A stretch of 64,000 bases of DNA from assembly GCA_964449165.1 (NCBI GenBank), contig CAYVAT010000004.1:91317-155316 (forward strand), given 5' to 3'. Under the pieces are notes generated by a model, which had not been told where the DNA came from, made no database searches, and saw only the letters and a list, made by a program, of their open reading frames with translations. Source of the DNA: an uncultured Eubacteriales bacterium (GTDB lineage: Bacteria > Acidobacteriota > Aminicenantia > Aminicenantales > Aminicenantaceae). A program made the translations under genes and the position numbers. Every line of letters starts with the position of its first letter. The stretch's first letter is position 1. Below, piece by piece: positions 28,226 through 54,836 of this stretch.

Positions 28226-28639
28226 TTATAATAGATAGACAATTTTATCTTCCCTGATTTCACAGGCAACAGATGGAGGCACCTGCTTAATCTTCTCAGT
28301 CAGATGCATTCCTTTCTCTATGATGAAGCCTTTGTGGCGATCATGAAAGAGTTTATTTATGTATTGATAACGTCGATTTAAGTAATAGGTATAACCGCTG
28401 TTGATTCGACGAATAGTAGGGGTAAGGTTGTTTTTACATGTTTCCATGAGATAAGCTTCCAGATCAGGTAGATGGACATAACCATAAAATGTGAGTTTAC
28501 TTTTGATCCTTTGTTGTTTGAGAAGATTTATAAAATAGCTTTTGTCCTGATCATCTTTAAAGATTTCTCGGCTGTCATTTCCTTTGGAACTGACGCGATA
28601 AGCTAAATCTTTGCCCTCAATCCTTGGGTGTCGTGTCAT
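28226..28639 (-). mobile_element. Degenerate IS200-like/COG1943 (Y1 HuH transposase, REP-associated-type) remnant, 137 aa, probably inactive
   Basis: N-terminus MTRHPRIEGKDLAYRVSSKGNDSREIFKDDQDKSYF follows the PRIExxGAxYHVxxRGN consensus of this family; the region aligning to HuH reads YVHL (one His lost) and the GRYK catalytic-Tyr region reads DRHKG. Confidence 0.5.
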
Positions 28640-37443: not shown

Positions 37444-39768
37444 TCAAATTTCTTGATCATTAAAGTGAATTAATAAGATTGTAAATGAGTCTTTAGTGTA
37501 TTCACCTGAATTTGGAGTAAAATTGGAGCCCCATCGGGCTATTCCCTTTGATATGCGTATCTCATCCAGCCAGCCATTGAAATGCTCTTCAGCGCCTCTG
37601 GATCCGATATGGAGCGGAGCTTCTGAATCGTATATTGAGACCTGCCCTATATCATGACTTTCACCTAGCTGAAAGCCATCAACAAAGGCCATAAGGTCTG
37701 AATCCTTCCTGACTATGGCTATGTGGTACCATCTATCCTTTGATGCAGACCAGTGGAACTTCGCATCCGTGTCGTTTTCTCCATCTGAACTATAGGAGAA
37801 CTTTATGCTTTTCGATTCTCCCTCCCATGCAATCTGCCATGCCTTGTCAGGACTGTAATACGGGTAGCCAACGAGAACCTGAGTTCCAGATGTATGTACA
37901 AATCTCACCCAGAAATCTATCGTGAAGTCTTCCGAGCTAAATGCCCAGCCTGGACGGTCTGCAACCTGCAGGTGGCTTCCGGCTCCATCAAAGAAAACAG
38001 ATGCACTGCCAAATTTTGGGTGTGCTGTATCAATCCGAACATTTCCATGAGGTATTATACTTCCCAACCGGAAGAGTTTGAATATGCCAATATGATAGAT
38101 TTCGGTGACATCGAACTCTTGATCCTTGATCCTTATTTTCTTTGGTTTATTTTGAAGTTGACTGAGAACAGGATCCTTATCCCAAGACCTGAATGAGGCA
38201 ATATATTTGATGTCTTTAATAAATAGATTTTTTGTATAATATGTAACAATATTTTTCTCGGGTATATCAGAAAGATAAGTAGCACAGGGCACCATTTTTC
38301 CAGGCATTAGTATCATTTCCTCGTTTTTCACTCTGTTTTTGACAACATTTAATCCAGCTTTTAAATCCCACAAACCGCCATACATATTATTGACTGTTGA
38401 TATGTGAGTGGAGACTAATGGAGTTATCAGCAAAAATAGAGGCAATAATAATAAATGACCTTTCGACCTGAAATGCCCTACTTTAAAAAAAACGTATACA
38501 CAGATTGGCAGAAATATTAAAAATCTTTTGAGGCTGTTTATATCAAAGCTGAGACTGAAAAACTCATGGTATGAATTTCTTATATACGGTGTGTTGAAAG
38601 CGCTATAAGCTACAATAATTCCCAATATTCCCAAAATAGATGCCACGATTATTTTTTTTTGATGTGGCCATCGCTTTAGAAAATATTCAATACCAGCGAT
38701 TGTATAAAGAGGGAACATCCACTCAATGAAATAGAAAAATCGCCAGGTTGTGTAGAAATAAAACCACAGGAAGAACAAGTACGCCAGAAAAAAGGTGTGC
38801 ACCTTCCAGTTGTTCAGCTTATTAAATTTAATCAGATGGAATAATCCAATCAAAATAATTAAAATGTTAATAATCCATACTATTTGTACCCACCAACTGC
38901 TATGAAATCTGGTTTCAGGCGTTACAGAAGCCCAATGATCAGCTGGCAAATAGGATAAGGTTATGGTACGCAACAGGGAAATAAAATCTCCTGTTGGCTT
39001 GCTTGTAACAAAAAGTTTATGCTTGAACAGGGCTGGAATATATCCACCTTTACCGATGAAAAAAAAATGATTGACCAGCAGCCAGATGGCAGAAGGCAGA
39101 AGGACGATAAAAGTTAGAAATATTAGACGCCATTTTTTTTTAGTAATAATTTTGGGCAAATTGGCAAGCACCGCTAATGCTGCGTCATACCGAGTAAATG
39201 CAGCGAGACCAGAGATGGACAAGGAGAGTTTTTCATTTGTGACATAAAAGGAGAGAAGGATCAGGACCAGCATTGTAGCCTCAGGTAGGGGTTGTGTTCC
39301 ACAATAGAGAGAAAGGCTTGAAAAAGCAAAAATCCAGCTGACAAGGAATGAATTTTTTATTCCGATCTTCTTGCTTATCTTATAGATAAGAATTATCGAA
39401 CATAGATAAGTGAAATTACTCAGAAGGATACCAGAATAAAGGATAGCTTTCTTTACTGAAATAAGCTGTGAAACCAATCCCATTAGCAGAGGGAAAAGAG
39501 GTTCTCTTAAAGTTCCAAATGGCAGATTAAAATGAAGCAGTGCTTCAGTAATATCCTTAAAAGCAAAAAAATCGCTTAAAGGAGAATAGTATTTTCCAGA
39601 GAGTAAAACTAGATAATAACAAGATATTCCTAATGTTAATGCAAGGGCCGAGATAGAAGCGACATCCTTCTTTTTGGGGTAATCACTATTTTGTGGTTTT
39701 TCACACAGTGGGAATTTGCTTTTTTTGGGTTGCAGCAATTCTCTCCATTTTTTATTCAAATTTAACAA
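37444..39768 (-). CDS. Polytopic GT-C-type membrane glycosyltransferase (ArnT/PMT-like) fused to a C-terminal LamG/ConA-like domain
   Basis: About 12 predicted TM helices over the first 450 aa with the loop and TM pattern of ArnT/GT39/GT83 enzymes; last 180 aa (FTIDFWVRFVHTSGTQVLVGYPYYSPDKAWQIAWEGE...FNGWLDEIRISKGIARW) about 70 percent identical to the C-terminus of the sulfatase-like protein at 1-2040. Confidence 0.6.
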   Translation of the reverse strand: MLNLNKKWRELLQPKKSKFPLCEKPQNSDYPKKKDVASISALALTLGISCYYLVLLSGKYYSPLSDFFAFKDITEALLHFNLPFGTLREPLFPLLMGLVSQLISVKKAILYSGILLSNFTYLCSIILIYKISKKIGIKNSFLVSWIFAFSSLSLYCGTQPLPEATMLVLILLSFYVTNEKLSLSISGLAAFTRYDAALAVLANLPKIITKKKWRLIFLTFIVLLPSAIWLLVNHFFFIGKGGYIPALFKHKLFVTSKPTGDFISLLRTITLSYLPADHWASVTPETRFHSSWWVQIVWIINILIILIGLFHLIKFNKLNNWKVHTFFLAYLFFLWFYFYTTWRFFYFIEWMFPLYTIAGIEYFLKRWPHQKKIIVASILGILGIIVAYSAFNTPYIRNSYHEFFSLSFDINSLKRFLIFLPICVYVFFKVGHFRSKGHLLLLPLFLLITPLVSTHISTVNNMYGGLWDLKAGLNVVKNRVKNEEMILMPGKMVPCATYLSDIPEKNIVTYYTKNLFIKDIKYIASFRSWDKDPVLSQLQNKPKKIRIKDQEFDVTEIYHIGIFKLFRLGSIIPHGNVRIDTAHPKFGSASVFFDGAGSHLQVADRPGWAFSSEDFTIDFWVRFVHTSGTQVLVGYPYYSPDKAWQIAWEGESKSIKFSYSSDGENDTDAKFHWSASKDRWYHIAIVRKDSDLMAFVDGFQLGESHDIGQVSIYDSEAPLHIGSRGAEEHFNGWLDEIRISKGIARWGSNFTPNSGEYTKDSFTILLIHFNDQEI

Positions 39769-49046: not shown

Positions 49047-49194
49047 CGATGAGCATCACCGGAATACCTTCCTTTATGGGATAGACCCGATGGCATTTCA
49101 CGCACTTTAGACCTTTCTCATCTGAGGTCAACTTGACATCTGTCTTACATAAAGGGCAGGCAAGGATTTCTAGAAGTTGAGGGTCAAGGACCAT
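49006..49194 (-). CDS. Trm112/UPF0434 (YcaR-like) small zinc-ribbon protein
   Basis: 62 aa: LLEILACPLCKTDVKLTSDEKGLKCVKCHRVYPIKEGIPVMLIDEA; overlaps the 5' end of the GT9 gene by 41 nt. Confidence 0.7.
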   Translation of the reverse strand: MVLDPQLLEILACPLCKTDVKLTSDEKGLKCVKCHRVYPIKEGIPVMLIDEATIEPERKTKD

Positions 49195-49308
49195 TCTTTA
49201 TCTCCTTCAGGGTATAATAACCCATATTCTTTCCCTCCGTCAATCTTACGATATTTTTTGATACCATTTCCAAATCCATGATAGTTGAAGATGAGGAATA
49301 TAGTCAGC

Positions 49309-49385
49309 CACTGCGCCGGTTCCCATCCCTCCTCGCCAAGACCCTCCCACCCTCCACAATGGGCTTCAGAGATATGGGTCCTGGC
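49309..49385. repeat. Copy A of an approximately 55-nt repeated intergenic element (core GCCAAGACCCTCCCACCCTCCACAATGGGCTTC) in a divergent promoter region
   Basis: 33-nt core matches copy B with 2 mismatches; flanking CGGTTCCCATCC also shared. Confidence 0.5.
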
Positions 49386-49480
49386 TCCGATCTGCCTAAC
49401 CACACAAAATGTTTCCCTCATCACGGAAACAGAAATGCAGATTGACAGCGGGTTGAGAGGGGTGATATTTTAAGCAAAAA

Positions 49481-50584
49481 ATGAAGGTTTGCTTTCTGGG
49501 AGGTTACAATCCGAGTTATCCACGAAACACGGTCATCAGAAAAGGCTTCAGGGCACACGGGATAGCAGTTTCTCAATGCTGGCTGCCTCCTGGATATAAA
49601 TCATGGATGCGTTATCCTCTGCTTTTTTTTCGTTCCTGGTCGTGTCTTTCCGGCCATGATCTCTTTTTTGTCCCTGAGTTTTGTCAGAAAGATGTCCCTT
49701 TAGCGAAATTCATTTCCTTTTTTGCAGGAAGAAAGGTGATTTTCGATCCTCTGGCTTCCCGCTTCGAGACCAAGATACTGGACTGGAAGAGGAAACCTCC
49801 TCATTCCTGGCAGGCCAGATGGAACTTCAGGATAGATTCTTGGGCTTTCAGGCTCTCCAATCTCGTCCTCGCCGATACCCATGCCCACAAGGAATATTAC
49901 TGTCAGGACTACAGGCTTCCCGATGATAAAGTGGAGGTTGTGCCAGTGGGCTATGACAGCGACCTTTTTCAACGCATATCAGATAAAGAAAGGCAGGGAG
50001 GAGATAAGTTTAAAGTTCTTTTCTTCGGTTCTTTCCTTCCTCTTCATGGGGTCAAGACCATCATCCAGTCGGCGAGGATTCTGTCTAGAAAAGATTCCTC
50101 TGTCTTTATTAAGCTTATCGGTTCAGGACAGACAAGGCCTGAGTCCCAGGCACTGGCTTCCCGATGGAGCTTGGATAACGTTCATTTTGAAGGATGGCTC
50201 CCTCAAGAATCTCTTCCTCAGCAAATTGCCCAGGCGGATATTTGCTTGGGGATTTTTGGGAAGGGAGAGAAGGCGAGAAGGGTTGTTCCCCACAAGATTT
50301 TTCAGGCCATGGCTATGGGAAAAGCAGTTGTTACCCTCCGTACCCCTGCTGTGGAAGAGTTTTTTCACCACAGAGAGGATATATTTCTCTGTCCCTCATC
50401 CCATCCGTCAGAGGTAGCCCAGGCTGTGCTTGAGCTGAAGAGAGACTCTGAATTAAGAAGAAAAGTAGCAGAAGGAGGATATGATCTGGTAAGCCAGAAA
50501 TTTTCGCCCGAGGCCATCGGCAGCATGCTTATAGATATTTTAAAGAGGCATCATTATCTCTCCTCCCAAGGACTTCTCCATTGA
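49481..50584 (+). CDS. GT4-family (GT-B) glycosyltransferase
   Basis: C-terminal Glycos_transf_1 pattern FFGSFLPLHGVKTIIQ...KIFQAMAMGKAVVTLRTP. Confidence 0.75.
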   Translation: MKVCFLGGYNPSYPRNTVIRKGFRAHGIAVSQCWLPPGYKSWMRYPLLFFRSWSCLSGHDLFFVPEFCQKDVPLAKFISFFAGRKVIFDPLASRFETKILDWKRKPPHSWQARWNFRIDSWAFRLSNLVLADTHAHKEYYCQDYRLPDDKVEVVPVGYDSDLFQRISDKERQGGDKFKVLFFGSFLPLHGVKTIIQSARILSRKDSSVFIKLIGSGQTRPESQALASRWSLDNVHFEGWLPQESLPQQIAQADICLGIFGKGEKARRVVPHKIFQAMAMGKAVVTLRTPAVEEFFHHREDIFLCPSSHPSEVAQAVLELKRDSELRRKVAEGGYDLVSQKFSPEAIGSMLIDILKRHHYLSSQGLLH

Positions 50585-51405
50585 AACAAAAATTTGGCCA
50601 ACCTGTGCGGCTTCCTCCATTCAGGGGGAGAGTGAATTCCAGCTATGATCACCCTCGGTTTCTGGAAGCCGTCACAAATTGTGAGAGCCTTCTTGATGGC
50701 CCTGATTGTGAAATTCTGCATGAAGGACGCAATCGACTGGGTGTTGTTTCCCTTTCCCGTAAAGATGGAACCAGAGCAGATATCGTTATTAAAGAGTTCC
50801 GTACTCGCGGTGCAAACAAACTCAAGAGCATTTTTCTCCCTGGCAAAGCCTCGAAGGCGTGGAGCGGGGCGCACAGACTCTTGGAAAGAGAGATCGGCAC
50901 ACCTTTTCCTGTGGCTTACCTGGAGGAAAGAGGAAGATTCTTTCTCCGAAGAAGCTTCTATTTGAGTGAGAGAATTGAAGGAGCGGAGGAAGCGAGATCC
51001 CTGTTCCGAAACCTTCATCCACAGGAGCTTGAATCCTTGTTGCTTGCCCTTGCCAGATTTCTTTCCAATTGTCACCAAAAGTGTGTTCTCCACCGAGATC
51101 TTTCCGACGGGAACATCCTGGTCAGGAGGAGTAACCAGAGGCATCATCAGTTTTTTTTGATCGACACCAATCGGGTTCGGATAAAAAAACACATCAACCT
51201 GTTGAGCAGGGTGAAGAATCTTATTCGATTGGGTGTTCCGCCTGGAGCTCAGCGCTTTTTCTTGTCCTGTTATTTGGGGGATCACAGCGAAAAGGCATTC
51301 ATCTGGCTCTGGTATCGTTTCCACAAGTTATGTTACTCATGGTATATTGAGATGAAAAAGAAGCTCAGGCTCAGACAAATAGCCCGGAGATTAAGGATTC
51401 AGTGA
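50581..51405 (+). CDS. Lipopolysaccharide kinase (Kdo/WaaP-family; Kdo kinase KdkA-like)
   Basis: VLHRDLSDGNILV...FFLIDTNRVR protein-kinase-like catalytic loop typical of the Kdo/WaaP family; 4-nt overlap with the upstream GT4 gene. Confidence 0.7.
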   Translation: MKQKFGQPVRLPPFRGRVNSSYDHPRFLEAVTNCESLLDGPDCEILHEGRNRLGVVSLSRKDGTRADIVIKEFRTRGANKLKSIFLPGKASKAWSGAHRLLEREIGTPFPVAYLEERGRFFLRRSFYLSERIEGAEEARSLFRNLHPQELESLLLALARFLSNCHQKCVLHRDLSDGNILVRRSNQRHHQFFLIDTNRVRIKKHINLLSRVKNLIRLGVPPGAQRFFLSCYLGDHSEKAFIWLWYRFHKLCYSWYIEMKKKLRLRQIARRLRIQ

Positions 51406-51406
51406 G

Positions 51407-52678
51407 ATGCATTTTTTGTTCGAATGGAATCCTTATGCTGATCAGCCTCATAACATCGCTCCCAGAAAAGAGCGTCTCAAGCATCATCTCAGACATGCAG
51501 ATACCTATTTCAGCCTGGCTGCTTCTAACCTCCGGAGAGCTGTTCCTGTATTGACCCTTTACAGGAAATACAGGAAAAAGATGTATAAGGGACAAGTCCA
51601 GATAGGCGACCCTTTCTCTCTTTCTGTTTCACCGCATGGGGGGAGGGAGGATGAGATTGTATCACTTCTCGACGAGATAGATATCCGGAGGATACTGATC
51701 AGAATTTTCTCATGGGAGTCATCAGGCCTTGCTCAGTGCCAGAAATTTTCAGAGCTTCTCTTCTCTCGAGATAAAGAAGTGACTCTGGCTTTGCTCCAGA
51801 ACAGAGAGGATGTGATCTCTCCTTCCCGCTGGAGCGGCTTCTTGGAGGATGTTTTTTCCCGGTTCCATTCTCATGTGTCCTTCTTCGAGGTGGGGCATGC
51901 CTGGAATCGGACAAAATGGGGAGTTTGGGACTATAGGGAATATTTAAGACTGGCACGCCCGGCTGTGAATTTAGCCAAAAAATATGGTGTGAAGATCGTG
52001 GGACCGGCGGTCATCGATTTTGAGTTCCATCTCTATCCCGCTGTCCTGGCTGAAGTTACCTTTGATAAAATCAGTTCTCTTCTCTATGTGGATAGGATGG
52101 GAGCCCCGGAGGAAAAGCAGTTTGGATGGGACACGTCCAGAAAAATAGCACTTTTAAAAGCTGTGGTGGATGGCTCCGCAAAGAGGAGTCAGGATTTATG
52201 GATCACTGAGGTCAACTGGCCTTTGAAAGGGACAGGAAAATATTCTCCTGCTTCGGGAAAGCCCAATGTTTCAGAGGAGGAACAGGCTGATTATCTGGTT
52301 CGTTATTATATTCTCTGTGTGTGCAGCGGATTTGTTCAGAGAGTTTACTGGTGGCAGTTGGTTGCTCCAGGCTATGGGCTCGTTGACAGTAGAGGGAGAG
52401 AATGGAGGAAGAGACCGGGTTTCTATGCCATGAAAACCATGGCTGCTCATCTGAGGGGGAGTAAATTTTTGAGAAAGATAGATCACCATCAGGCAGAACT
52501 TTTTTCCTTCTCCAGAGGAGAAAAGAATTTTGTTGTCTGCTGGTCAAGAAACAGTGCTGTGACATATCGTTTCCCCAGAAAAATTGTGAGGGTGATCAAC
52601 CGAGATGGAAAAGAGATCTCCTGTCTTGAAAACAGAGTGGAGATCGACGGAAGCCCGAAATATGTATTTCTTGATTAG
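51407..52678 (+). CDS. Hypothetical protein, possibly a clan GH-A-like TIM-barrel glycoside hydrolase
   Basis: ITEVNW segment resembles the nucleophile strand of GH-A enzymes; otherwise no secure motif. Confidence 0.3.
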   Translation: MHFLFEWNPYADQPHNIAPRKERLKHHLRHADTYFSLAASNLRRAVPVLTLYRKYRKKMYKGQVQIGDPFSLSVSPHGGREDEIVSLLDEIDIRRILIRIFSWESSGLAQCQKFSELLFSRDKEVTLALLQNREDVISPSRWSGFLEDVFSRFHSHVSFFEVGHAWNRTKWGVWDYREYLRLARPAVNLAKKYGVKIVGPAVIDFEFHLYPAVLAEVTFDKISSLLYVDRMGAPEEKQFGWDTSRKIALLKAVVDGSAKRSQDLWITEVNWPLKGTGKYSPASGKPNVSEEEQADYLVRYYILCVCSGFVQRVYWWQLVAPGYGLVDSRGREWRKRPGFYAMKTMAAHLRGSKFLRKIDHHQAELFSFSRGEKNFVVCWSRNSAVTYRFPRKIVRVINRDGKEISCLENRVEIDGSPKYVFLD

Positions 52679-52715
52679 TCCTCATCCTCCTTTCTAGGAT
52701 TCAGGTGAAAGAAAG

Positions 52716-53369
52716 ATGATGAGCGAGAGACCTTCCAGCGTCTCTTTTCTGAAGCATGAAGTTGAGGACTACGAAAAAAAAAGGTATCGGGGCCTTGACC
52801 AGAGGTTTGTTGACCAGAGGGAAAAGAGGATTTTAAGAAGAATCCTGGGAGAGATTCATGAAGATGGGAGCATAATCCTCGATATTCCCAGCGGCTATGG
52901 CCGTTTCTCAGATCTCTTGCTGGAGAGAGGATCCGCTTTGGTGAGCAGTGACCTTTCTTTCCATATGCTCAGGCGGGCAAAGGAAAGGAGCTCGCTGGAA
53001 GGGGTTCATTCTGCGGTTGTCTCCGATGCCAAGAAGGGATTGCCTTTTAAAGGTGAGGCTTTCACTATCCTCGTTTGCATGCGTTTTTTCCATCATCTTC
53101 ACAAGAAAGAAGAACGCGAGTTCGTTCTTAAAGAGTTTGCCACCGTCTCCTCGAATTGGGTGATCCTTACCTTCTACAAAAAAAACTTCCTTCATACTCT
53201 TCAGAGAAAACTGCGCAGAAGAATAAAGAAAACCAAGCGGAGAATCAGCATGATCTCGATGAGGGAATTTCAGCAGGAGGTGAATCGGGCAGGTCTGTCA
53301 GTGGCTGAGGTTTTTCCTCTCTTCAGGATTTTCCATGCTCAGCATATCGTGCTTCTCCGAAAATCCTAA
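52716..53369 (+). CDS. Class I SAM-dependent methyltransferase
   Basis: ILDIPSGYGRFSDLLLERGSALVSSDLSFHML motif I region. Confidence 0.65.
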   Translation: MMSERPSSVSFLKHEVEDYEKKRYRGLDQRFVDQREKRILRRILGEIHEDGSIILDIPSGYGRFSDLLLERGSALVSSDLSFHMLRRAKERSSLEGVHSAVVSDAKKGLPFKGEAFTILVCMRFFHHLHKKEEREFVLKEFATVSSNWVILTFYKKNFLHTLQRKLRRRIKKTKRRISMISMREFQQEVNRAGLSVAEVFPLFRIFHAQHIVLLRKS

Positions 53370-54529
53370 AACCTTATTTTAATCCCCATTCTTAGGCTAA
53401 AGCCAGAAAAGTCCACCACAGCCTCCTTTACTTTAGAGACATCAGAACCTGCTGGCTCGTTCTTACGGATAAAGAGGAGAGGATAGGTTGCATCTCCCCC
53501 TCCCACTCCCTGATAGAAGTATAGTTTTCCTTCTTCTGTGGAGAGGGAATCTTCGGAATCTCTGTAGGTGTTTTTTCCTTCAAATCCTGTGATTCGGGCA
53601 TAACGCCCCAAGGCTTCAATGACGAAACTCAATGAAGAGTATATCTTCCATTCAAACCCGAAACCCCCGAAGAAACCAAAATCCTGGGCCTTGGCTTCTC
53701 CTTGATGTTCTTCCCAGAGTTCTCCTCTCTCCAATCTATAAAGATAGACACATTCAGCAAAATAGTATTCCACACCGGTCTTGATGTAAAAAGAGGAGAA
53801 GGGGGAGAAGGTAAGAAAAAGTCTCAAGGGAAGAGCCTGGATTTTGGGTTGGGTGATGAAACTCTGAGTGGTTGTGTCGTTCATCCTGAAGTCCACTTGA
53901 CTCTTCTTTTCGCCTTGTAAGAAATCTGCTCCCAGTCCTACAGAAATATCAGAGGAGAGAGAAAAGTTTAATTCTCCTCCAAAGACATAACTCAGGCGCA
54001 CAGACCGAACCTCCCCGCTTCCTTCTAGGGAAAGAGCATCCCTGTAGAAATCAGCCAAGCCTTTGGTTCCTGTGTTTAGGTCTCCACCATTGATGAAACC
54101 TGCGCCTCCAGAGAGGGAGAGATCAAACCGGTGTTTGATAGGTGGAGAGGGAGGAGGTATTGTCGGATAGACCTTTATTTCGGTCGGTTCCTCTTTTGAG
54201 GTCACTTCCTTTAGTTTCTGTGCTTTTTCTTTTTCCTTCGGAGGAAGAGGGCTGATCACCACAACCAAGCTTTCATGAACATAGCCGGAAGCACGCTCTT
54301 CTTCATCTGTCTCTATTATGATCTGATACCACTCTCCTTCCTTACCCGATGAGTTGAGGATGGTTCCCTCGGGCACTTGCTTGATGATGATGCTTCCGAT
54401 ATCAGGTTTAAGCCTTATGTTGGCCTGTTCGGCAACCACCTTCAACTTATAAGGGACCTCCTGGGCGAGGATGGCCATCGCTAAGAAGATGGGGATAAGC
54501 AGGGATAAAATGAGAATTCTTTTCTTCAT
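53366..54529 (-). CDS. Secreted protein with N-terminal SH3b-like domain and C-terminal outer-membrane beta-barrel-like region
   Basis: Signal peptide MKKRILILSLLIPIFLAMAILAQE; SH3b-like ANIRLKPDIGSIIIKQVPEGTILNSSGKEGEWYQI; alternating amphipathic strands and terminal ...GIKIRF (aromatic C-terminal residue typical of OMPs). Confidence 0.45.
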   Translation of the reverse strand: MKKRILILSLLIPIFLAMAILAQEVPYKLKVVAEQANIRLKPDIGSIIIKQVPEGTILNSSGKEGEWYQIIIETDEEERASGYVHESLVVVISPLPPKEKEKAQKLKEVTSKEEPTEIKVYPTIPPPSPPIKHRFDLSLSGGAGFINGGDLNTGTKGLADFYRDALSLEGSGEVRSVRLSYVFGGELNFSLSSDISVGLGADFLQGEKKSQVDFRMNDTTTQSFITQPKIQALPLRLFLTFSPFSSFYIKTGVEYYFAECVYLYRLERGELWEEHQGEAKAQDFGFFGGFGFEWKIYSSLSFVIEALGRYARITGFEGKNTYRDSEDSLSTEEGKLYFYQGVGGGDATYPLLFIRKNEPAGSDVSKVKEAVVDFSGFSLRMGIKIRF

Positions 54530-54642
54530 AGGCGAAGATTTTCTCCAAAATTATAGAAAAGCTATTTCTCGCTGTCAAGGAAGTCGATTTTAGAAAGCAT
54601 TTCTATTTCTGTTATAGTGAATGAATAGGAACAAAATCGACT

Positions 54643-54728
54643 ATAGCGACGGTTCCCGTCCATCCTTGCCAAGACCCTCCCACCCACCACTATGGGCTTC
54701 GGATGGACAGGAACCGCCGTATCGCTGT
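54643..54728. repeat. Copy B of the same element, here a long imperfect hairpin (about 20-bp arms GACGGTTCCCGTCCATCC / GGATGGACAGGAACCGCCGT) with the conserved core in the loop
   Basis: Inverted repeat and core read directly from the sequence. Confidence 0.5.
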
Positions 54729-54836
54729 TTAACTGGATAAAATATCTTCGCTTATCCCGGAAATGAAAATGCTATCCTGATTTTGCTGTTTCTTGGAAAA
54801 AGTGCTAATATCTATTAAGATCCTGAGGAGGAGACC

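Follow-up and report, generated by a model that had tools for sequence, protein, structure and literature searches.

The two look-alike stretches in the 64-kb window (the whole stretch of DNA that was analyzed) are very probably copies of a noncoding, nonautonomous DNA transposon (MITE) of about 184 bp that inhabits the genomes of Aminicenantes. The first-pass annotation had noticed a 33-nt core in two divergent intergenic regions, and this observation holds. Specifically, there were two exact pattern matches to the core in the window (49335-49367 and 54668-54700, both on the plus strand), while none of 100 shuffles contained one, and open reading frames and Pfam matches agree on the settings: copy 1 lies between a Trm112-like gene on the minus strand and a GT4 gene on the plus strand, and copy 2 between an SH3b/OMP gene (minus) and a DUF1573 gene (plus). 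The original estimate of a repeat of about 55 nt was too short, however. An nhmmer profile built from other copies matched over nearly its full length at 49261-49439 (E = 4e-42, profile positions 2-179) and at 54594-54774 (E = 4e-43, profile positions 2-180), giving a repeat unit of about 184 nt, with copy 1 at 49260-49442 and copy 2 at 54593-54776, both on the plus strand. The same search found no third match anywhere in the window, for a total of two copies, which are also the only ones known from the source genome.

Copy 2 (184 nt; supported by nhmmer, folding, and the sites of relatives) is the better preserved of the pair. On the plus strand, its left and right terminal inverted repeats (TIRs), GAAAGCATTTCTATTTCTGTTA (54593-54614) and TCCCGGAAATGAAAATGCTATC (54755-54776), match the family consensus at 18 and 16 of 22 positions, respectively. 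Outside of these lie the two target-site duplications, TCGATTTTA (54584-54592) and CTGATTTTG (54777-54785), which are identical at six of nine positions and were placed by a 9-bp register set first with 35 other elements and later with 64. The central hairpin (54650-54716, plus strand) is supported by folds and by covariation across subfamilies, and its stem pairs 54650-54665 with 54701-54716. The core had been described as the loop of this hairpin, which is true for about 16 nt (TCCCACCCACCACTAT) but not for the outer bases: AAG(A)CCC and GGGCTT pair with one another and thus lengthen the stem. The hairpin interior therefore consists of an inner stem (AAG-CCC/GGG-CTT) and a 16-nt, C-rich loop that is nearly invariant, the opposite strand of which (GGTGGGTGGGAGGG) is G-quadruplex-like.

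Copy 1 (183 nt) bears the marks of an old and decayed insertion. Its boundaries were taken from the best TIR matches, GATACCATTTCCAAATCCATGA on the left (49260-49281, 14 of 22 consensus positions) and TCACGGAAACAGAAATGCAGAT on the right (49421-49442, 16 of 22), both read on the plus strand, and the flank comparison revealed no recognizable target duplication around it. The fold-back of the entire element has been lost (DNA fold z = -0.63), whereas the whole of copy 2 still folds back on itself (-27.3 kcal/mol, z = -3.97). Likewise, folds of 101 nt gave z = -5.2 (plus) and -4.6 (minus) for copy 2 versus -0.8 and -1.3 for copy 1, in line with the initial impression that the second copy carries the stronger hairpin. 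That difference would follow from age, with copy 2 the younger insertion.

The ends of the element define its family. Among 74 copies, the 22-bp TIRs (GGAAGCATCTCTATTTCCGTGA ... TCACGGAAATAGAGATGCTTCC) are perfectly complementary in consensus, and the pair changes together between subfamilies, with nine pairs of helix 1 altered on both sides. When the flanks of 35 full copies were compared, identity rose to a sharp peak at a 9-bp register (61% versus a background of about 30%). Furthermore, in a set of 64 elements gathered by TIR alone, the flanking 9-mers were identical at eight or more positions in 33 and perfect in 16. Elements bounded by the same TIR range from 56 to 480 bp with interiors that are unrelated, and at other loci (L110 and L122) there are internal-deletion derivatives without the loop. 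The 22-bp ends together with the 9-bp duplication define a superfamily.

Related genomes capture the element in different states. In L008, both window sites are empty, and at the copy 2 site a single CGATTGA stands where the duplication sits. L003 retains 11 nt of the right end of the MITE, corresponding to the last 11 nt of the right TIR of copy 2, flanked by both copies of the duplicated target. At the orthologous site, L006 and L007 lack copy 2 or have it in reduced form, and L103 and L104 carry it. In L103, a second element of 177 nt is nested in the right end of copy 2, with a perfect 9-bp duplication (AAATGCTAT), and the copy 1 intergenic region of L006 holds an element of a different subfamily. 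The relatives showing filled, deleted, and nested states share 92-97% nucleotide identity.

The element is abundant. A scan for the core across one genome per species, a sample outside of which the source genome fell, returned at least 94 loci, and nearly all of those listed were in "Candidatus Aminicenantes" metagenome-assembled genomes (MAGs). Single Aminicenantes MAGs contained at least 19, 16, 13, 11, and 8 loci. Many of the matches listed lie about 40 nt or less from a contig end, and Logan contig L002 breaks off inside the core. Based on crude gene calls (ORFs of at least 120 aa), 84 of 86 copies were intergenic, that is, outside long ORFs. The ORFs called across copy 1 are short and lack Pfam matches, and their called lengths disagree between L001 and L002, two contigs of identical sequence. 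With the same crude calls, divergent intergenic regions held 49% of copies versus 26% of noncoding length, an approximately twofold enrichment (p ~9e-4), and orientation in codirectional regions was not biased (13 sense, 8 antisense). Across many genomes, the element adjoins unrelated genes, among them those for ThyX and DNA polymerase X, tRNA genes, and numerous further ones.

These observations bear on three explanations put forward in the first-pass annotation. We give almost no credence to a shared operator that coregulates the two envelope gene sets. It is true that both copies fall between divergent promoters of genes for the cell envelope. Yet unrelated genes adjoin the element in many genomes, and the promoters are conserved in relatives where the element is missing (L008) or a remnant (L003); nor are 184 nt with TIRs operator-like. 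The promoter-like sites themselves lie outside the MITE. One follows immediately on copy 1 and serves the GT4 gene (TTGACA-18-TATTTT, 49442-49471, plus strand), and because its TTGACA is also found in L008, where there is no element, the hexamer is host DNA. The other precedes the SH3b/OMP gene (TTGACA-17-TATAAT, 54550-54578, minus strand) and matches the consensus at 12 of 12 positions; it lies 6 nt outside the left target-site duplication of copy 2. The proposal of a REP- or MITE-like mobile repeat was borne out for the MITE and not for the REP. A REP/BIME-type repeat moved by a RAYT (Y1/HUH) transposase would also be palindromic, intergenic, and abundant in copy number, and an ORF at 28226-28639 on the minus strand, suspected of being a RAYT-like remnant, has a faint match to the NCBIfam model REP_Tyr_transpos (E = 0.012). 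However, that match reaches 15.5 bits against a cutoff of 80, the ORF has no Pfam match, and the profile search of the window found no MITE copies flanking it. REPs are much shorter (20-40 nt) and are not known to carry terminal inverted repeats or target duplications, an anatomy that is contradicted by a 184-nt element with 22-bp TIRs and 9-bp duplications. In addition, REP/RAYT mobility involves single-strand HUH chemistry, not staggered double-strand insertion. We therefore regard this origin, and the link to the ORF, as extremely improbable.

More of the evidence turns on the central hairpin. A duplicated gene for a small structured RNA, or a cis-regulatory RNA, could account for copy 2 folding far beyond shuffles and for covariation of the stems. 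Across subfamilies, stem pairs changed on both sides in 99 cells versus 41 in shuffles (0 of 500 reached 99), and 84.8% of stem cells were paired versus 37-48% when partners were slid. Nevertheless, mismatches of the G·T type (128) and A·C type (115) were equally frequent, a symmetry between the strands that favors a DNA palindrome over a strand-specific RNA. No Rfam family reached its gathering score in the window. The minus strand of the copy 2 hairpin resembles RF03075 (DUF3800-VIII) in having a long hairpin and the elements CCGAAGCCC ... GGGU ... AGG, but its score was below threshold (29.9 versus 40.2 bits; E = 0.022 in 5.7 kb), and there was no match in copy 1 or, at E <= 1, in eight other copies. 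The published motifs take their definition from proximity to DUF3800 genes (PMC5737381), and no such gene was found beside the window copies, where the neighbors are GT9, Trm112, GT4, Kdo kinase, methyltransferase, SH3b/OMP, DUF1573, and YggT. Moreover, no terminator-like site was found after copy 2, copies may face either way with respect to genes, and TIRs and target duplications are foreign to RNA genes. Taken together, an RNA gene is very unlikely. An argument can also be made that the MITE has been co-opted, its conserved central hairpin, with the C-rich (on the other strand G-rich) loop, being a functional module that transposition spreads into promoter regions, where it would alter expression of neighboring genes. 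Candidates for such a module are a site bound by protein, a G-quadruplex or i-motif, and a hairpin of regulatory RNA with an anti-Shine-Dalgarno-like CCUCC. Stem pairs are kept through two-sided changes, and in a small set gathered by TIR (n = 11 copies), conservation was higher in the central stem and loop (0.87) than in the arms (0.63-0.71); transposition alone has no obvious need of either. The enrichment in divergent regions and the promoter-like sites directly downstream of both window copies are also compatible with co-option. Yet hairpin-templated repair, or selection for efficient transposition, can maintain palindromes, divergent regions are both long and insertion tolerant, and the gene calls behind the enrichment are crude. 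A sample gathered by the core favors a conserved core by construction. Furthermore, the lack of orientation bias, the strand-symmetric mismatches, the loopless derivatives, and sister families with the same ends and unrelated interiors all speak against a functional module. We consider co-option unlikely, and we place at the same low level the combined proposal that the covarying hairpin and loop are a working module (a protein-binding site, a non-B DNA structure, or an RNA hairpin) rewiring promoters via the MITE within a superfamily, with shared ends and dozens of different interiors, possibly driven by an undescribed type of transposase. If true, transposition in Aminicenantes would rewire how envelope genes and others are expressed.

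An ordinary MITE, the reading that we favor, suggests the following sequence of events. A transposase encoded elsewhere would bind both of the identical ends, make a 9-bp staggered cut in the target, and insert the element, with repair of the stagger yielding the 9-bp duplication. The interior, a long and imperfect palindrome with the 33-nt core as its tip, may serve to hold the two ends close to each other. Copy 1 would represent an older insertion that has decayed and copy 2 a younger one that folds still. That both landed between divergent promoters probably reflects a tolerance of, or attraction for, insertions in such regions and not shared regulation of the neighboring genes. As genomic parasites go, the element is of an ordinary type, and it leaves the understanding of MITEs unchanged, but there are practical implications for the study of Aminicenantes, a widespread uncultured lineage. 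Copies break metagenome assemblies, with many contigs ending within them, and become hypothetical proteins in gene calling. When intergenic regions are compared, they can also pass for conserved regulatory motifs or for structured RNAs. At the same time, they provide a marker of recent genome dynamics.

A search of related loci totaling about 1.5 Mb found neither an autonomous element nor a transposase whose ends match those of the MITE. Metagenome assemblies often miss insertion sequences. In terminal sequence, there is some resemblance to the IS66 family, whose ends begin with GTAAGCG, for example, GTAAGCGTCC (PMC11946415, PMC12888890). The ends of the Aminicenantes element, GGAAGCATC and GTAAGCATC (many copies start with GTAAGCATC), share six to seven of these seven bases, and the TIRs are similar in length (20-30 bp). 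The element differs in having an A rather than a G at position 7 and a 9-bp duplication instead of the 8 bp made by IS66 (PMC11946415, PMC12898284), and no IS66-type genes were found adjoining any element end. Target duplications of 9 bp are attributed to the IS4 and ISLre2 families (PMC8024623, citing Siguier et al. 2015), a likeness in duplication length. No transposase of either type was found near any copy.

The element is most at home among the MITEs that have been described in other bacteria. These include Correia/NEMIS in Neisseria, RUP in Streptococcus, ERIC/IRU in enterobacteria, and Nezha in cyanobacteria. Like them, it is noncoding, multicopy, and within a size range of about 100-400 bp, with TIRs, a duplication of fixed length, and the capacity to fold back. 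It is also mainly intergenic, often near promoters, and prone to breaking short-read assemblies. What sets it apart is its own sequence, its host phylum ("Candidatus Aminicenantes"), and a duplication of 9 bp, where Correia and RUP duplicate TA. Finally, the ends of the Aminicenantes element bound many families with unrelated interiors, from 56 to 480 bp, which distinguishes it from these other MITEs.

Two divergent intergenic regions of the window carry copies of one noncoding MITE, whose 33-nt core was flagged from the sequence alone by the first-pass annotation. The core occurs exactly twice, both times on the plus strand (49335-49367 and 54668-54700), with none expected by chance, and the ORF and domain context bears out its divergent setting. 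Copy 1 lies between heptosyltransferase and Trm112-like genes on the minus strand and genes for GT4, Kdo kinase, an unknown protein, and a methyltransferase on the plus strand, and copy 2 separates an SH3b/OMP gene (minus strand) from the DUF1573 and YggT genes (plus strand). The repeated unit, previously put at about 55 nt, proved to be longer, with an alignable stretch between the two regions of approximately 180 nt. When 21 good copies were used to build a profile, it matched the window exactly twice, each time over nearly the whole element (49261-49439 and 54594-54774), and the terminal repeats set the limits of the element at 49260-49442 for copy 1 and 54593-54776 for copy 2. When both copies were folded over 101 nt, the hairpin that had been attributed to the stronger copy was evident in copy 2 (z = -5.2 and -4.6 for the two strands), with no comparably strong fold in copy 1 (z = -0.8 and -1.3). 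Elsewhere in the window, positions 4-303 and 37495-37794 form a 300-nt direct repeat with 75% identity and a spacing of 37.5 kb, which probably reflects two paralogous genes.

The element belongs to a dispersed family. Proteins encoded nearby assign the window to Ca. Aminicenantes. With AAGACCCTNCCACCCNCCAC as the query and one genome per species, the core was found at no fewer than 94 loci. Except for seven matches under other taxon names, whose ends score at chance level, the listed loci belong to MAGs of Aminicenantes or Acidobacteriota, or to unclassified "binchicken" MAGs that also carry other taxon names. Single MAGs hold at least 19, 16, 13, 11, and 8 loci among the matches listed. Many of the listed matches lie no more than a few tens of bases from the end of a contig, and one Logan contig with the same sequence as the window breaks off inside the core, as is usual for dispersed repeats that disrupt assembly. 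Built from 74 complete copies, the consensus measures about 184 nt; its 22-bp ends are perfectly complementary (GGAAGCATCTCTATTTCCGTGA ... TCACGGAAATAGAGATGCTTCC), its center forms a stem (CGGTTCCCCTCCATCC / GGATGGAGGGGAACCG), and the originally flagged core sits at the tip of the palindrome. The loop in the window (54675-54688) reads CCCTCCCACCCACC on the plus strand, including an anti-Shine-Dalgarno-like CCUCC, and GGTGGGTGGGAGGG on the minus strand, a G-quadruplex-like run at the palindrome tip. In locus L066, a MITE copy (L066:4786-4975) is interrupted by a third kind of repeat, CGTCGGATAAGCCGACGGGTCCCCCCTCCGCTACGGGGG, which is rich in GC, and the same motif is also present in L043, near 7600.

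Target duplications are a second property of the family. Across 35 full copies, the two flanks are 61% identical when compared in the 9-bp register, a sharp peak, versus about 30% in every other register. In a separate sample that was gathered from metagenomes via the terminal repeat alone, the flanking 9-mers were identical at eight or more of nine positions in 33 of the 64 elements with two good ends, and perfectly so in 16; these targets had no consensus besides a mild AT-richness (36% GC). Copy 2 is flanked by TCGATTTTA and CTGATTTTG, which match at six of nine positions, and no duplication was recognizable in the flanks of copy 1. Nearly all copies (84 of 86) are intergenic and, when ORFs of 120 aa or longer serve as a crude set of genes, 49% are found in divergent intergenic regions versus 26% of the noncoding length of the same loci (p ~9e-4). 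In two MAGs, MITE copies are 65 to 80 nt away from tRNA genes that have long variable arms (L073:6907-6992 and L023:2422-2505).

Comparison of contigs bearing orthologs of the DUF1573 gene revealed a graded series. In contig L103 (95 to 97% nucleotide identity), copy 2 is present in the same place, and nested in its right end is another element of 177 nt (L103:2281-2457) with a perfect 9-bp duplication (AAATGCTAT) and ends that are similar to those of the MITE (GAGAGCATCC...CCGTGAT / ATCACAG...GATATGCTTAG). This nested element is a sister MITE; its core (GGGCATGGTTCCTC ... TTCCTCGCTGGGGAAA) is found again in L105 and L112. The right end of copy 2 sits at the same junction in L104 (93%). In L003 and L004 (92 to 94%), both target copies are kept, separated only by GAAATGCTATC, the element's final 11 nt. 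This remnant points to an internal deletion that ran between short GAAA repeats located at the palindrome's base. Both sites are empty in the more distant L008 (70% protein identity), which has a single CGATTGA at the copy-2 site and a contiguous GTCAATC-AGGGAAGAT-TGACAG at the copy-1 site. In that contig, no GT4 gene is called between the Trm112-like and Kdo-kinase genes, where there is instead a 650-nt gap (L008:5172-5820). In contig L006 (approximately 78 to 82% nucleotide identity; DUF1573 76% identical), the copy-1 intergenic region holds a member of a different subfamily, and the copy-2 site has no element. The copy in L005 (87%) is located about 300 nt farther upstream of the DUF1573 gene, in a different synteny. 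Taken together, the series shows that the elements insert, are lost, and repeatedly strike the same regions.

The ends are shared more widely than the core. The 19-nt end AGCATCTYTWTTTCCGTGA was detected at no fewer than 120 metagenomic loci, and the core-bearing family makes up only about one-tenth of such ends among the loci listed. The remaining ends bound elements of 56 to 480 bp that have unrelated interiors and, again, 9-bp duplications. In addition, two 130-nt internal-deletion derivatives of the MITE (L110:659-788 and L122, ~1288-1417) are without the left stem and loop, and still have good ends and target duplications matching at 8 to 9 of 9 positions. Given these other interiors and loopless derivatives, the 33-nt core marks one family.

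Both window copies sit next to promoter-like sites. Copy 2 lies between a minus-strand site upstream of the SH3b/OMP gene (54578 to 54550), which is a perfect 12/12 match to the sigma-70 consensus TTGACA-17-TATAAT, and TGCTAATAT, which we read from the sequence as an extended -10-like box for DUF1573. Copy 1 ends immediately at the TTGACA belonging to the promoter-like site of GT4; this hexamer is host DNA, since L008 has it without the element. The proposal of a shared operator and the alternative of a small structured RNA are contradicted by the pattern of presence and absence, the neighboring genes, the lack of orientation bias (13 versus 8 in codirectional gene pairs, with both orientations present), and the symmetry of mismatches. 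In an alignment of 39 copies, subfamilies differ by changes on one arm that are matched on the other, in the central stem and terminal repeats alike. The 55-pair fold-back pairs 84.8% of cells versus 37 to 48% with partners slid, a fraction inflated by taking the structure from one member, and both sides have changed in 99 cells versus 41 in shuffles, with none of 500 shuffles reaching the observed value. The palindrome is thus maintained. Selection on one RNA strand should tolerate only one kind of mismatch, but G·T and A·C are equally frequent overall (128 versus 115; 30 versus 42 in the central stem), from which we conclude that it is as DNA that the palindrome acts or is simply preserved. 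At gathering thresholds, an Rfam scan of the window found nothing. Identity with the RNA motif family DUF3800-VIII (RF03075) was considered and rejected: the minus strand of copy 2 scores 29.9 bits, below the gathering score of 40.2, and the match is absent from copy 1 and eight other copies. Published DUF3800 motifs are defined by adjoining DUF3800 genes (PMC5737381), and there are none beside the window copies. Among 11 copies gathered by their ends, a small and partly selected sample, conservation of the central stem and loop is 0.87 versus 0.63 to 0.71 in the arms. Residual interest lies in this better-conserved center, on account of which a function of the hairpin's own is conceivable, although improbable.

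A coding interpretation also fares poorly: ORFs over the copies are short and match no family, and relatives lack the sequence. Hypothetical proteins of 83 and 77 aa have been called publicly over copy 1 (L001:5366-5617 and L002:1553-1786; window ~49170-49424, minus strand), and in all likelihood these are spurious calls within the MITE. Of the mobile repeat that had been suggested, the MITE part stands, as seen directly in the ends, duplications, copy number, insertion, deletion, and nesting, while the REP part is unsupported. REPs are not known to carry terminal repeats or target duplications. The suspected link to a REP-associated tyrosine transposase is likewise unsupported. The 137-aa ORF at 28226-28639 (minus strand) has a faint NCBIfam match to that model (E = 0.012; 15.5 bits versus a cutoff of 80) and nothing in Pfam or PDB; it can be no more than a very degenerate remnant and has no relation to the MITE.

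The MITE is an ordinary kind of element that is undescribed in this lineage as far as the literature was searched; no report linking Aminicenantes with MITEs was found. A candidate transposase acting in trans would recognize the 22-bp ends and make 9-bp staggered cuts. No such enzyme was found in the loci searched for an autonomous partner: the pairs of end-like sites 0.3 to 7 kb apart in all loci were separate MITE copies flanking housekeeping genes, and ORFs downstream of mateless ends had no common protein family, being ordinary enzymes or chance matches inside genes. Assignment to an insertion sequence family from the ends alone was considered and rejected. The element begins with GTAAGCATC or GGAAGCATC, similar to the GTAAGCG that marks IS66, but IS66 makes 8-bp duplications (PMC11946415, PMC12888890, PMC12898284) and the MITE has 9 bp. 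IS4 and ISLre2, which make 9-bp duplications (PMC8024623), agree with the MITE in duplication length only.
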